A stretch of 64,000 bases of DNA from Escherichia coli. Its GTDB lineage: Bacteria > Pseudomonadota > Gammaproteobacteria > Enterobacterales > Enterobacteriaceae. A program made the position numbers. Every line of letters begins with the position of its first letter. The stretch's first letter is position 1. The stretch lies in assembly GCF_017348835.2 (NCBI RefSeq), contig NZ_CP072312.1; one strand, 5' to 3'. Shown here in pieces: positions 1-6,000 of the stretch.

Positions 1-3000
1 TGACAGACTTTCTGCTGGGACACCTGCGTCCGGGTGAACCGCCCCGGGTTTCCTGGAGAGTGTTTTATCTGTGAACTCAGGCTGCCAGATCATCGTTTCC
101 GATGGAAGCATAATAAGCTTTTTCTGCTTCTGCCGGGGGAGTATGGCCCAGCCTTTCCAGCAATCGTCGATTGTTATACCAGTCCACCCACGTGAGTGTG
201 GCCAGTTCCACTTCTGCACGGTTTTTCCAGCTCTTACGGTGTATTACCTCCGCTTTGTAAAGACCATTGATGCTCTCCGCCATCGCGTTGTCATACGAGT
301 CGCCAGTACTCCCTGTTGATGCCAGTAATCCGGCTTCCTTAAGCCGCTGCGTGTAGGCCAGCGATACATACTGAGAACCTTTATCACTGTGATGGATTGT
401 GCCGGACGGCCGACGGGCCCACAACGCCTGCTCCAGTGCATCCAGCACGAATGTTGTTTCCATGGATGATGAGACCTGCCATCCCACGATGTATCCGGCG
501 AACACATCAATGATGAACGCCACATAAACGAAGCCCTGCCATGTGCTTACCCAGGTAAAATCAGCCACCCACAACTGGTCTGGACGTTCTGCCACGAACT
601 GACGGTTTACGCGGTCGCATGCGGCAACGGCTTTCCGGCTGACGGTAGTGCGGACCTTTTTACCCCGGAGAACACCGGCAAGTCCCATAACTGCCATGAG
701 ACGTGCCACAGTGCATCTGGCCACTCTGATACCTTCCCGTAACAACTGACGCCAGACTTTACGCACACCGTATACCTGGTGATTTTCATCGTATACGCGC
801 TGTATCTCTTTCTTCAGCCAGTCATCGTGCTGCGCACGGGCACTGCGTTTATCCGGATGATGTCGCTGTTGCTGACAATGGTAATACGTTGACGGGGCAA
901 TATGCAGTTCGCTGCATACCGGTCCGACCCCGTACTGCTCACGCAGCTTATCCAGCAGTGGCATTATTTTTTCCAGAGGCGGTCGAACTCCGCCTTCGCA
1001 AAATAAGCGGAAGCCTGGCGAAGGATATCGTTACTGCGGCGCAGTTCACGATTTTCACGTTCCAGCTCTTTCAGACGCTGACGTTCAGCGGTGGTGAGTC
1101 CACCATCACCACTCCCGGTATCCCGCTCATGCTGGCGAACCCAGACACGCAGAGTCTCCGGCGTACAGCCAATCTTTGGAGCAATGGAACAAATTGTCGC
1201 CCATTGTGAGTCATATTCATCCTGACTTTCCAGAACCATACGAATCGCCCGCTGACGGACTTCGGGGGAAAAACGAGTATTTTTAGTCATCCTGTTTACC
1301 TCTTTCTCAGGGAGTTTAGTCTCCAGGATTTCCGGGGCGGTTCAGCCATAAAGTTATGTTCCTGACGTATGTATTCGTCCCGCAGGAATCAACCAACTGA
1401 TTTATCTGAATTTATCATGCCCCTCAACTCTGATTTTATTCATCTTGTTTACCGAATCGGGTATATCTGATAACTGTCCCGATAAGACTTTTTGTTTCGC
1501 CAGCATAATCTCTTTTTCAAGCTTTTGAAGTTCTTTTATATAGTCATTCTTCCCTTCTTCATCAGCCGGTGAAATGCTCTCAGGAAGACGCTTCATTGAC
1601 TCATCTACAGCATCATCCATTCTGTCAAGAGCTTCAAGAAGCTCCTTTTTATCCATTGATGACTGAAGTACACTCATATTCCTTGCAAGAACTTGCATGC
1701 TTTCATCAAGTTCTTCTGCCACTGTAATCCCCCCACACAAAAAATATAATGCCATACCACAGCTGATTATAACTTTATTGCTTTTCTGCATAATTTCTCC
1801 TTCATGAGGGAGGTGCCCTCCCTCATCAGTTTTATCATTTATTGTTTAAATCAAACCGATCGCTATTCATAACTTTATTCCACGATTTAACAAAATCATG
1901 AATAAACTTATTTCTCGCATCATCCGAGGCATATACTTCTGCCACCGCACGTAATTCAGGATTTGAACTGAAGATTAAATCAACAGAGGATGCTTTCCAT
2001 TTTAATGCTCCCGTTTTACGATCGAATCCATTGTATGTATCTTCTTTATCTGCTTTACTCCATCGTGTTGACATATCCAGCAGATTAACAAAAAACTTGT
2101 TATCCAGAACACCAGGGGTATCGGTAAACACTCCCAACGAAGAATTATTTGTATTAATATCCATTACCCGCAGACCACCCAGTAATGCCGTCATTTCAGG
2201 AACGGTGAGATCCAGCTGACTGGCTTTATCAATGAGGCTTTCAACCGGCGATATATGACTTCTGCTTTTTGAGTAATAATTTCTGAATCCATCTGCTGTC
2301 GGCTCCAGTACACTGAATGAGGCAACATCCGTCTGCTCCTGAGAGGCGTCAGTTCTTCCCGGAGTAAAGGGAATCTCAAGTTCCACCCCGGCTTTTCTGG
2401 CCGCATCTTCGATTGCAGCATTACCCGAAAGAACAATTAAATCAGCCAACGACACTTTCTTTCCGTCAGACTGTTTTTTGTTAAATTCACGCTGTAATGA
2501 GGTCAGGGATGCCAGTACTTTCTTCAGTTTTTCAGGCTCATTAACTTCCCAGTTAATTTCGGGCTGTAACCTGATGCGGGCACCATTATTTCCCCCACGA
2601 TAATCAGTCACACGAAATGTGGAAGCTGAAGCCCAGGCTGTCTTTATCAGCTCAGATGCAGGGATACCCAAATCCATAACCTGCTCTTTCAGCGACTTAA
2701 TGTCTTTACCATCAATCATTGTATAATCCGCCGCAGGAAGAGGATCCTGCCAGATAAATGATTCTGCAGGAACTTCATTACCAAGATATCGGGCTGCCGG
2801 TCCCATATCCCGGTGGGTCAGTTTAAACCATGCTCTTGCGAATGCCTGCTCAAAAGCTTTTGGATCATTCAGGAAACGGGTGGTTATTTTCTTATATTCA
2901 GGATCAACTTTAAGAGCAATATCCGTCGTAAACATCATCAACGGATGCAGGACAGACGGATCATGCGCGTCCTGAACTATATTTGCCGCTTTTTTAGGCT

Positions 3001-6000
3001 TCCACTGATAAGCACCGGCAGGACTCTTGTGCAGCTCCCATTCATATTTATATAAATTCTTCAGATACTGCATTGTGAACTGGGTTGGCGATGTCGACCA
3101 GGCTCCTTCCAGGCCACTGGTGATGGTATATTTGCCGTTTCCTGTACCACATTTATTTTTCCATCCCAGTCCCTGCTCCTCCACAGGTGCACCATCAGGC
3201 CCTGCGCCAATACATTTTTCAGGAGACGCTGCACCATGTGCTTTACCAAATGTATGCCCTCCCGCGATCAGGGCCACAGTCTCCTCATCATCCATGGCCA
3301 TACGTGAAAAAGCTTCCCTGATATCTTTCGCGGAAGCCAGAGGATCTGGTTTTCCACCGGGGCCTTCAGGATTGACATAAATAAGTCCCATCTGCGTGGC
3401 GGCAAGAGGTTTCTGAAGTTTCCCGTTTTTATCCCGGTTATCTGCAAGAGGCTTGTTGTCAGGCCCCCAGTATACCAGGTCCGACTCCCAGTCATCTTCT
3501 CTTCCGCCAGCAAATCCCAGCGTTTTAAATCCCATGGATTCAAGGGCAACATTACCAGTCAGGACCATCAGGTCTCCCCAGGAAATACTGGAGCCGTATT
3601 TTTTCTTGACTGGCCACAGCAATCGACGGGCTTTATCCAGATTAACGTTATCCGGCCAGCTGTTCAGCGGTTCAAAACGTTGCTGACCACCACTGGCGCC
3701 TCCCCGGCCATCATATGTCCTGTATGTTCCGGCACCGTGCCAAGCCATACGAATAAAGAAAGGACCATAATGACCATAATCCGCAGGCCACCAATCCTGG
3801 GAAGTTGTCAGCAAATCTTTGATATCTTTTTTCAGAGCCTCCATATCCAGCTGTTGAAATCTGGTGGCATAATCAAAATCAGCCCCCCAGGGATTTGATT
3901 CAGGGCTGTGTAATCTCAGAGGAGTTAAATCCAGTGTTTCTGGATAGTAGAAATTTTGAGTCTCTTTTTTATCAGCGGCTACAGCGGTAGAAAAGCTCCC
4001 CGATAGCGCCAGAAGAATCAGAACAGGAAGAGTTTTTTTTATCATACGAATAGCTCCGGATTAAGGGAAATTCGCATGTTGTATACAAAAGTCAACTTTA
4101 TTGATGCAACAGGATATACCTATTGCTGGGATAGATACTACAGACAAAAAATACTAAGGGGTTCCAAGCCGCAACTGAACCGCCCCGGTTTTCCTGGAGA
4201 GTGTTTTATCTGTGAACTCAGGCTGCCAGATCATTATTTCCGATGGAAGCATAATAAGCTTTTTCTGCTTCTGCCGGAGGAATATGGCCCAGCCTTTCCA
4301 GCAATCGTCGATTGTTATACCAGTCCACCCACGTTAGTGTGGCCAGTTCCACTTCTGCACGGTTTTTCCAGCTCTTACGGTGTATTACCTCCGCTTTGTA
4401 AAGACCATTGATGCTCTCAGCCATCGCGTTGTCATACGAGTCGCCAGTACTCCCTGTTGATGCCAGTAATCCGGCTTCCTTAAGCCGCTGCGTGTAGGCC
4501 AGCGATACATACTGAGAACCTTTATCACTGTGATGGATTGTGCCGGACGGCCGACGGGCCCACAACGCCTGCTCCAGTGCATCCAGCACGAATGTTGTTT
4601 CCATGGATGATGAGACCTGCCATCCCACGATGTATCCGGCGAACACATCAATGATGAACGCCACATAAACGAAGCCCTGCCATGTGCTTACCCAGGTAAA
4701 ATCAGCCACCCACAACTGGTCTGGACGTTCTGCCACGAACTGACGGTTTACGCGGTCGCATGCGGCAACGGCTTTCCGGCTGACGGTAGTGCGGACCTTT
4801 TTACCCCGGAGAACACCGGCAAGTCCCATAACTGCCATGAGACGTGCCACAGTGCATCTGGCCACTCTGATACCTTCCCGTAACAACTGACGCCAGACTT
4901 TACGCACACCGTATACCTGGTGATTTTCATCGTATACGCGCTGTATCTCTTTCTTCAGCCAGTCATCGTGCTGCGCACGGGCACTGCGTTTATCCGGATG
5001 ATGTCGCTGTTGCTGACAATGGTAATACGTTGACGGGGCAATATGCAGTTCGCTGCATACCGGTCCGACCCCGTACTGCTCACGCAGCTTATCCAGCAGT
5101 GGCATTATTTTTTCCAGAGGCGGTCGAACTCCGCCTTCGCAAAATAAGCGGAAGCCTGGCGAAGGATATCGTTACTGCGGCGCAGTTCACGATTTTCACG
5201 TTCCAGCTCTTTCAGACGCTGACGTTCAGCGGTGGTGAGTTCACCATCACCACTCCCGGTATCCCGCTCATGCTGGCGAACCCAGACACGCAGAGTCTCC
5301 GGCGTACAGCCAATCTTTGGGGCAATGGAACAAATTGCCGCCCACTGTGAGTCATATTCATCCTGACTTTCCAGAACCATACGAATCGCCCGCTGACGGA
5401 CTTCGGGGGAAAAACGAGTATTTTTAGTCATCCTGTTTACCTCTTTCTCAGGGAGTTTAGTCTCCAGGATTTCCGGGGCGGTTCAGGTATCCTGAAATAG
5501 CCCGCTGCACGGAGCGGGAGTTTGCGACCATTCTTGCCGGTATCAGCGCCGGCGGCATGTACTGCCCGGAGTGTGGCACGGTTCACTGGCCGGACGGAGT
5601 CCCCCCGCCCTTCTGATGCTTCCCCGTTTTGCCGACATTTTTCAGCAGGGAAACCGCTGGCTTAACTGGCTGGAGAAACAACCGGAAGGTTCTGTGCGTC
5701 CGGTGGTCATTGAGTCGGTGACAAAAATCATGGCATGCGGAACCACGCTGATGGGGTACACACAGTGGTGCTGTTCATCTCCGGACTGTTGCCACACAAA
5801 AAAGGTCTGCTTCCGGTGTAAAAGTCGCTCCTGCCCGCACTGCGGAGTGAAGGCTGGCGCACAGTGGATACAGTATCTGCTGAGTCTGGTTCCCGACTGT
5901 CCGTGGCAGCATATTGTGTTCACACTTCCCTGCCAGTACTGGTCCCTGGTGTTCCACAACCGGTGGTTACTGGCAGAGATGAGCCGCATTGCTGCGGATG

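Follow-up and report, generated by a model that had tools for sequence, protein, structure and literature searches.

What brought the catalase-peroxidase gene katP to rest between two IS629 copies on this Escherichia coli plasmid: transposition of the whole arrangement as one element, or recombination between IS629 copies that were already there? The window, that is, the whole 64,000-nucleotide stretch of DNA analysed here, opens on the remains of a traH gene, runs through the two IS629 copies and the module that they enclose, and continues into an IS91-family region:

1..34, minus strand: traH pseudogene, 5'-truncated, its final 34 bp, the outer flank of copy 1
35..1344, minus strand: IS629 copy 1, complete, 1310 bp, IRR at about 35-59 and IRL at about 1320-1344; orfB 77-964, orfA 964-1290, ALIL pseudoknot 893-1009
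1345..4175, minus strand: katP-b562 module, 2831 bp
1402..1791, minus strand: cytochrome b562 gene, 129 aa (Pfam PF07361, E = 2e-14; RefSeq "cytochrome b562" in relatives)
1835..4045, minus strand: katP, catalase-peroxidase, 736 aa (Pfam PF00141 in two stretches, E = 3e-73; KatP in relatives)
4046..4175, minus strand: katP upstream region, 130 bp, reaching the IRR end of copy 2
4176..5485, minus strand: IS629 copy 2, complete, 1310 bp; orfB 4218-5105, orfA 5105-5431, ALIL pseudoknot 5034-5150
5486..6803, plus strand: IS91-family region, the outer flank of copy 2; transposase ORF 5571-6803 (Pfam Y2_Tnp, Zn_Tnp_IS91)

Copies 1 and 2 are IS629, of the IS3 family: length, termini, orfA/orfB and identity all fit. 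The original prediction saw two full-length, directly oriented copies at 35-5485, and so it proved: both measure 1310 bp, and a BLAST search with copy 1 finds them in direct orientation, intact and 99.16% identical over 1310 bp, while an ungapped comparison at an offset of 4141 matches 35-1345 with 4176-5486 and finds unrelated sequence beyond both ends. Both begin TGAACCGCCCC and finish GGGGCGGTTCA, repeats of the IS629 type (TG at the start, CA at the end), and their terminal inverted repeats are imperfect, with arms of 25-28 bp that are 86-88% complementary. Pfam assigns to the minus strand of each an orfA (108 aa, HTH_Tnp_1) and an orfB (295 aa, rve), and the ALIL frameshift pseudoknot is present in each at full score (120.3 bits); RefSeq annotates a "programmed frameshift" in the identical copies of the plasmid pF2_18C_FIB (hereafter also pF2). 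The phage BP-4795 element deposited as IS629 shares 98.7% identity with copy 1 over 1310 bp, and the subtypes of IS629 are reported to lie 4-5% apart (PMC3271280). Eleven differences separate the two copies, at IS positions 14, 60, 61, 103, 107, 160, 244, 1066, 1146, 1163, and 1170, so that the 821 bp from position 245 to 1065 show none. Being intact and sharing an identical core of this length, the copies are good substrates for recombination.

The enclosed module holds only katP and the b562 gene, as predicted; all further ORFs in its 2831 bp (1345-4175) are short and overlap katP. It is found in 481 complete E. coli genomes, in most of them at 99.97-100% identity over positions 1-2831, and its edges (GCCATAAAG... 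on the b562 side, ...GCCGCAAC on the katP side) are common to pO157, pO26, pF2, PV16-126, and many others. The katP upstream region is identical up to ...GCCGCAAC in pO157, pO26, and pF2. Both edges vary by lineage, the katP side by +17 bp in p1_ST866 and −6 bp in p2974-D, the b562 side by 0 or +CT. Scanned for consensus promoters, the module showed no sigma-70-like site in the 130 bp upstream of katP.

Six IS629 copies lie in the 64-kb window, a density at which two neighbours running in the same direction are not improbable per se. Three of the others bear on the argument:

25926..27235, plus strand: IS629 copy 3, opposite in orientation to copies 1 and 2; with copy 2 it bounds a 20.4-kb segment that is inverted with respect to pF2_18C_FIB
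34352-35661: nested IS629 with a clean 3-bp duplication, TCC
45025..46334, plus strand: IS629 copy 6, between ehxC and a truncated traJ

Copy 1 is preceded by ...TCCGGG and followed by GCCATAAAG, and copy 2 is preceded by ...GCCGCAAC and followed by GGTATCC. A 3-bp target duplication was sought at each and, again as predicted, neither copy has one (GGG/GCC at copy 1, AAC/GGT at copy 2). None surrounds the whole unit either, the outer flanks being GGG/GGT in the window, GGG/CTG in pF2, and GGG/AGG in PV16-126. Simple IS629 insertions do show duplications, TCC at the nested copy of the window and ATA and GAC in pO103 12009; their absence at copies 1 and 2 reflects later rearrangement and is no ground for excluding these copies from IS629. 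An attempt to rebuild the duplications by pairing all IS629 flanks of the window, pF2, and pO103 12009 gave no IRR/IRL match: the IRR-side flanks are GGG, AAC, GGG, CTC, and ATA, the IRL-side flanks GCC, GGT, GAT or CTG, CAA, GTT, and AGC, so the history of insertion is not reconstructable in this way.

Published plasmids already show this arrangement, a case of ordinary, documented IS-driven plasmid mosaicism. IS629-b562-katP-IS629 with an identical traH' flank occurs in at least five public plasmids (pF2_18C_FIB, pO103_PV16126, 2011C-4315, pD2-tet(X4), and Z1323HEC0399). The left flank is thus one truncated traH in six plasmids, window included, with a 34/34 match to pF2_18C_FIB, where RefSeq annotates it "TraH, missing N-terminus"; the same traH'/IS629 junction is also found in pO103 12009, PV16-126, and FWSEC0007, and in p2974-D the left flank of the unit is the ecf IS629 junction. 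The right flank is ehxC in four plasmids, stcE in one (pF2), and the IS91 region in the window. All three of these junctions exist elsewhere: those to ehxC and stcE are IS629 IRL junctions in the katP-negative pO103 12009, and the one to IS91 recurs in pF2_18C_FIB on the IS629 copy adjoining ecf. Beside katP, the junction of copy 2 with IS91 has no record in the collections searched. Dinucleotide variants, CT or AG, separate versions of the IRL-side junctions.

The closest relative of the window is pF2_18C_FIB (NZ_CP043544.1), a virulence plasmid of aEPEC ST302 (PMC6985150), with a unit 99.84% identical over 1-5485, a backbone of 99.7-99.96% identity, and shared IS629 sites. It differs in that the 20.4-kb stretch between copies 2 and 3 is inverted, which brings its katP-side IS next to stcE with two added bases (CT) at the junction, and in that the nested IS629 of the window (34352-35661) is missing; its rearrangements have been put down to flanking IS elements (PMC6985150). 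The original prediction considered copies 1 and 2 alone, but copy 2 has a second partner, the inverted copy at 25926-27235, across this inversion. In pO103_PV16126 (NZ_AP038988.1) the unit lies at the same traH' junction with 99.3% identity, where katP-negative pO103 plasmids have a solo IS629, a difference that has been called "insertion of the katP gene" (PMC12831630). Unlike the window, the pO103 plasmids of PV16-126, 12009, FWSEC0007, and CEC12044 have ehxC as the right flank and are without the IS91-yacAB-RepFII block; copy 6 of the window carries the junction with ehxC found beside the katP unit in PV16-126-type plasmids.

On these comparisons, what we have is probably an IS629-bounded katP-b562 cassette of a pO103/pO157-like EHEC plasmid, whose position is set by IS629-IS629 recombination and which resembles a compound transposon in appearance only. 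Were copies 1 and 2 to cross over, the product would be a 4141-bp circle, made of the module and one IS629, with a solo IS629 left behind; in the reverse reaction the circle could insert into any resident IS629. Neither reaction would need or generate a target duplication. The IS91 right flank may have arisen by inversions between copy 2 and IS629 copies of opposite orientation, together with a small IS-adjacent deletion; 148 bp that lie between the IS and GGTATCC in pO26 are absent from the window. Excision, circle formation, and dependence on RecA are what we infer from comparing sequences. In favour of recombination between IS629 copies, the inversion that separates the window from its closest relative has its end points in copies 2 and 3, solo and composite states coexist at the traH' junction, and the flanks of the unit are IS629 junctions present elsewhere.

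The solo state is seen in 13 katP-negative complete plasmids with one IS629 between traH' and ehxC flanks, a flank pair that encloses the composite in four others (pO103_PV16126, 2011C-4315, pD2-tet(X4), and Z1323HEC0399). The katP-negative pO103 plasmids 12009, FWSEC0007, and CEC12044 carry a solo IS629 at the very traH' junction of the unit. For the flanks of the window and of pF2 we searched RefSeq complete E. coli and PLSDB with synthetic deletion-product queries (traH' with IS91 and stcE flanks, a gap the size of one IS being allowed), and no solo IS was found between traH' and IS91, or between traH' and stcE, which counts against the preferred reading. The sole two-piece match, pUTME-3-pO157, was set aside, as its traH is cut at another base, its IS is reversed, and its IS91 breakpoint differs; pUTAK-21-pO45, considered as a katP-negative twin of pF2, was uninformative, its traT/IS91/stcE arrangement being different. 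The prediction that katP-negative relatives would have a single IS629 is thus borne out by the 13 pO103-family plasmids and by none with the traH' and IS91 flanks, and gain or loss by IS-IS recombination as the explanation of katP variability fits the traH'/ehxC flanks; the window's own flanks gave no solo product.

The alleles of the IS629 copies add detail. From about IS position 110 onward, AG+GTTTGC flank included, the solo copy of FWSEC0007/WL1277 equals the katP-side copy of PV16-126; over the initial ~107 bp, nearest katP, the two differ, and the PV16-126 copy has T at position 14, an allele otherwise confined, within the pO103 family, to the copies that adjoin katP in pF2 and the window. 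Copy 1 of PV16-126 matches the solo IS of pO103 12009 at every position. That a solo IS629 at traH'/ehxC matches most of the PV16-126 katP-side copy fits gain or loss inside IS629. On the other side of the module, 1146A, 1163T, and 1170T occur only in the copies adjoining b562 in the window, pF2, and p2974-D, the last of which shares all three despite its other outer flank (ecf). Module-linked alleles are thus found at the inner IS ends; other positions misfit a single crossover, the FWSEC0007 solo copy having three alleles near its IRR end that occur in neither PV16-126 copy, and the IRL part beside the IS91 flank differing between the window and pF2. These off-pattern alleles suggest gene conversion among IS629 copies, which would have overwritten part of the record, since the alleles are not clean two-parent chimeras. 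IS alleles do not tell gain from loss, since the chimeras to be expected are the same either way and homogenisation of the copies is plain to see.

There might be no functional unit at all, the direct pairing being incidental to independent IS629 insertions and IS-adjacent deletions near katP. The number of IS629 copies in the window and the variable module edges would agree with this, as would the surroundings of katP elsewhere. The pO157 and pO26-type plasmids share with the window the 2831-bp module, its equal edges, and the adjoining IS91-yacAB-RepFII block, but neither has a direct-repeat IS629 pair at katP: pO157 has an IS truncated at IS position 1032 on the b562 side and none on the katP side, and pO26 combines a b562-side IS 5'-truncated at position 481 with an inverted katP-side IS of another subtype (94% identity). 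IS copies beside katP are inverted or truncated in 90-3040, ST866, and p2974-D as well, and a pig plasmid has a 98% identical katP-b562 pair without an adjoining IS629. The original prediction had staked itself on related plasmids not carrying katP without flanking IS629, and pO157, the pO26-type plasmids, and the pig plasmid go some way against it. We nevertheless consider it unlikely that no unit exists, for most katP-positive plasmids have both inner junctions as a pair, at 100% identity, and a solo/composite polymorphism at identical outer flanks is the product expected of IS-IS recombination, not of independent insertions.

The CT/AG versions of the junctions are not explained by plain homologous recombination, and they lead to a reading in which the events begin exactly at an IS629 end, by end-targeted insertion or by adjacent deletion with microhomology joining, and depend on transposase or IEE instead of RecA. 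The IRL-side junctions occur with and without the dinucleotide; PV16-126 equals pO103 12009 plus exactly the module, an IS, and AG beside the IRL of the 12009-identical copy; in pO157 a TGA microhomology accompanies the absence of the katP-side IS and a further 47 bp, and the truncation of the IS on the b562 side spans a CAGC microhomology. IEE-dependent excision of IS629 is reported to leave adjacent deletions of a few nucleotides to >40 kb (PMC9943667). Against this, the AG flank of PV16-126 copy 2 and most of that copy's sequence recur in the FWSEC0007-type solo IS, a pattern that fits a crossover inside the IS, and nothing ties either enzyme directly to these junctions, so that we hold such an origin to be decidedly unlikely.

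A more specific version would have the 4141-bp module plus IS629 enter a resident IS629 as a translocatable unit, through an IS-end-directed reaction dependent on transposase or IEE, not RecA. By analogy, the katP unit would resemble IS26 pseudo-compound transposons and translocatable units, and Tn3411, in having its cargo between direct IS repeats, in the solo IS at the site in relatives, and in the lack of a duplication when a resident IS is used. If true, this reaction could leave CT/AG at the IRL-side junctions and could explain the 100%-identical 2831-bp module across O157, O26, O145, O103, and O111 plasmids. IS26, however, has its own conservative, IS-targeted reaction, whereas IS629, an IS3-family element, moves by copy-out-paste-in. 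We know of no IS26-like IS-targeted reaction of IS629, which makes ordinary homologous recombination the default assumption. The translocatable unit is very unlikely.

Highly improbable, too, is an active compound transposon in which the 5451-bp unit is moved whole by IS629 transposase acting at the outer end of copy 1 and that of copy 2. Copies of a single IS do indeed stand on either side of the cargo, their outer ends intact, their terminal repeats complete, and their two ORFs and frameshift signal present, and the IS3 family offers a precedent in Tn3411, a compound transposon with direct repeats of the IS629 relative IS3411, but the unit is without a 3-bp duplication here or in pF2, in all plasmids examined each of its outer flanks is an IS629 junction known also apart from katP, its left flank is one truncated traH in six plasmids and not a set of independent targets, and among the plasmids compared it was not found at independent sites with new flanks on both sides. 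Movement as a composite transposon is unsupported: there is no duplication around the unit, so nothing shows past transposition.

katP serves as a typing marker for EHEC virulence plasmids, and its patchy distribution has often been remarked upon. The alternation of IS629-b562-katP-IS629 with one IS629 at one and the same site, as in the pO103-type plasmids, provides a concrete mechanism for this patchiness; neither the presence or absence of katP nor the order of its neighbouring genes makes a good phylogenetic marker.

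Between two complete copies of IS629 lies the 2831-bp katP module, composed of katP and a cytochrome b562 gene; the two copies, each 1310 bp long and on the same strand, are 99.16% identical by BLAST, so that the original prediction was accurate on this arrangement, its coordinates and its gene content. The features concerned, with IS629 located by BLAST with copy 1, are:

35-1344, same strand as copy 2: IS629 copy 1, 1310 bp
1402-1791, minus strand: cytochrome b562 gene, inside the module
1835-4045, minus strand: katP, inside the module
4176-5485, same strand as copy 1: IS629 copy 2, 1310 bp
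Within each of copies 1 and 2, minus strand: orfA, 108 aa, HTH_Tnp_1
Within each of copies 1 and 2, minus strand: orfB, 295 aa, rve integrase core
25926-27235, inverted relative to copies 1 and 2: IS629
33943-36565: IS629-like element, split by the copy at 34352-35661
34352-35661, inverted: IS629, inside the element at 33943-36565
45025-46334, inverted: IS629

In an ungapped comparison at an offset of 4141, copies 1 and 2 match over 35-1345 and 4176-5486, and the sequence outside is unrelated. Both start with TGAACCGCCCC and end with GGGGCGGTTCA, have imperfect inverted repeats of 25-28 bp at their termini, and contain a full-length ALIL frameshift pseudoknot (120.3 bits); katP and the b562 gene are transcribed in the same direction as both sets of transposase genes. 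Copy 1 shares 98.7% identity with the phage BP-4795 element deposited under the name IS629, which, set against the reported 4-5% divergence among IS629 subtypes (PMC3271280), justifies the name. With six IS629 copies in the 64-kb window, an adjacent pair in the same orientation is unsurprising by itself.

The split element is ≈96% identical to copy 1, and the complete IS629 within it is in the opposite orientation; since its counterpart is uninterrupted in pF2_18C_FIB (pF2, NZ_CP043544.1) and pO103 12009, the insertion looks recent and particular to the window plasmid. At 10728-10977, adjoining etpO, 250 bp of another IS3-family element survive, matching the IRL-side end of IS629 at 87%; this remnant is also kept in pF2 and pO103 12009.

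The flanks are ...TCCGGG and GCCATAAAG for copy 1, ...GCCGCAAC and GGTATCC for copy 2. In the window neither copy 1, nor copy 2, nor the whole 5451-bp IS629-b562-katP-IS629 unit is bordered by a 3-bp duplication, bearing out the original claim for the two copies. The nested IS629 at 34352-35661 has TCC on both sides, and two copies in pO103 12009 are flanked by 3-bp duplications, ATA and GAC. IS629 thus gives 3-bp duplications here, and their absence from copies 1 and 2 means that these copies did not originally insert between the flanks they now have.

The window is part of a pO103/pO157-like EHEC virulence plasmid, whose exact arrangement has no match in PLSDB or the RefSeq complete E. coli genomes. 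The nearest record is pF2 (99.7-99.96% identity), with which window 1-5485 aligns in a single piece at 99.84%, including the 34 bp left of copy 1, the end of traH' (a 5'-truncated traH pseudogene). The window and pF2 have opposite orientations between copy 2 and the inverted copy at 25926-27235, and therefore in pF2 the katP-side IS adjoins stcE and the IS91 region adjoins the ecf operon. The inverted 20.4-kb segment (within 4176-27235, between inverted IS629 copies) contains an IS91 transposase, the yacAB toxin-antitoxin pair, the RepFII replicon, the etp type II secretion genes, and stcE. Further inversion and deletion mediated by IS629 probably gave the unit the flanks that it has in the window.

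The 4.6-kb IS91-yacAB-RepFII block (5486-10111) is missing in pO103 12009 and pUTAK-21-pO45, in which the IRL end of IS629 directly meets the next base after the block, AGCTATTC (a DUF2726 gene fragment), as if an entire replicon block had been deleted next to the IS, or else gained. In pO103 12009 (record 73659-75546 and 1-34298), a virulence region of ≈34 kb, stcE-etp-ecf-ehxC, lies between two inverted IS629 copies standing in place of the traJ-to-traH part of the F-like transfer operon. These truncated ends of traH and traJ recur in the window, redistributed by inversion.

With the 5451-bp unit as query, one-piece occurrences beside the identical traH' were found in pO103_PV16126, 2011C-4315, and pD2-tet(X4), in addition to pF2. 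Z1323HEC0399 also has the unit, its katP-side IS internally deleted, and in these four plasmids other than pF2 the right flank is ehxC. In the katP-negative pO103 12009, a single IS629 has its IRR end at the same traH' base and its IRL end at ehxC. A joined query of 900 bp of traH' and 900 bp of ehxC flank retrieved 13 complete plasmids with these flanks one IS apart, the match spanning 3110 or 3112 bp; the 3112-bp class (FWSEC0007, CEC12044, WL1277, WL1467, and UTAK-10) has the flank AG+GTTTGC, exactly that of PV16-126. The expected single IS629 in katP-negative relatives is thus present for the traH'/ehxC flanks, but not for the window's own: no record in the RefSeq complete E. coli genomes and PLSDB shows the product expected from the window, a solo IS629 between traH' and the IS91 region, or that expected from pF2, a solo copy between traH' and stcE. 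The only near match, pUTME-3-pO157, was rejected because its breakpoints and IS orientation differ.

The solo IS of FWSEC0007 and WL1277 equals the PV16-126 katP-side copy from IS position ≈110 to the end, and differs from it in the first ≈107 bp, beside katP. There the PV16-126 copy has a T at position 14, an allele that within the pO103 family is otherwise confined to the copies next to katP in pF2 and the window. Likewise, three alleles (positions 1146, 1163, and 1170) occur solely in the b562-adjacent copies from the window, pF2, and p2974-D, though the outer flank of p2974-D is the ecf junction and not traH'. The inner IS ends thus appear to move together with the module, the outer parts resembling resident copies, as predicted by recombination inside the IS. 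PV16-126 copy 1 and the pO103 12009 solo IS are identical throughout; near the IRR end of the FWSEC0007 solo are three alleles present in neither PV16-126 copy, and the IRL part beside the IS91 flank differs between window and pF2. The copies are mosaics, the record evidently being blurred by gene conversion, and for this reason these data do not tell katP gain from loss in a given lineage. Three IRL-side junctions also occur across plasmids in two versions that differ solely by a dinucleotide at the IS end: CT for stcE (window position 25926) and b562 (1344/1345), AG for ehxC (45025). Plain homologous recombination within the IS does not explain this.

The module is present in 481 of 5426 complete E. 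coli genomes, nearly always on plasmids, and at ≥99% identity in 443 of them. The direct-repeat arrangement is not universal among katP plasmids. In pO157 the b562-side IS is cut at position 1032 over CAGC microhomology, and the katP side has no IS, ...GCCGCAAC being joined directly to the final 101 bp of a stretch of 148 bp located beyond an IS in pO26. In pO26 and 90-3040 a 5'-truncated IS lies on the b562 side, with two additional bases, CT, after it, and on the katP side an IS of a different subtype (94% identity) abuts the module at the same base in inverted orientation. p1_ST866 has 17 bp more native sequence after ...GCCGCAAC, then an inverted IS, and in p2974-D the IS begins 6 bp earlier than the usual katP-side edge. 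Pig plasmid HCP4S3_I4 (NZ_JBWDPW010000003.1, locus 8850-12400) carries a katP-b562 pair of 98% identity, neither edge of which adjoins an IS629 end. IS1A is on one side of the pair, and the other side has a hypothetical gene and a fragment of IS91; this plasmid may keep sequence past the usual borders of the module and could hint at where the module came from. The original prediction took katP in relatives lacking flanking IS629 as evidence against it, and by that measure these neighbours weaken two flanking copies as a constant, defining feature of katP. Deletions adjoining IS629, from a few nucleotides to >40 kb, are described in work on the IS-excision enhancer (PMC9943667), with which the small deletions at the module edges would fit.

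The unit resembles a compound transposon, as originally proposed. Its right-flank junctions exist apart from it, ehxC and stcE in katP-negative plasmids and IS91 beside ecf in pF2, and no target duplication was found at any occurrence among the plasmids compared. With outer flanks that are always IS629 junctions occurring elsewhere apart from the unit, movement as a compound transposon is unsupported, and the sequences give no sign of en-bloc transposition. The other half of the proposal fares better: katP-negative relatives do have a solo IS629 in that same place, and recombination between IS copies is a very plausible explanation of how katP is gained and lost. The structure of the IS629-flanked arrangement and its general explanation can already be found in public records and papers (PMC6985150, PMC12831630), and the mosaic nature of pO157, with IS elements next to its virulence segments, is a long-standing description (PMC2811833).

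In pD2-tet(X4), a 246.7-kb plasmid from hospital sewage, the EHEC-type traH'-IS629-b562-katP-IS629-ehxCA block is found inside a large plasmid whose name refers to the tigecycline resistance gene tet(X4). If the naming holds, virulence and resistance modules would be combined on one replicon.
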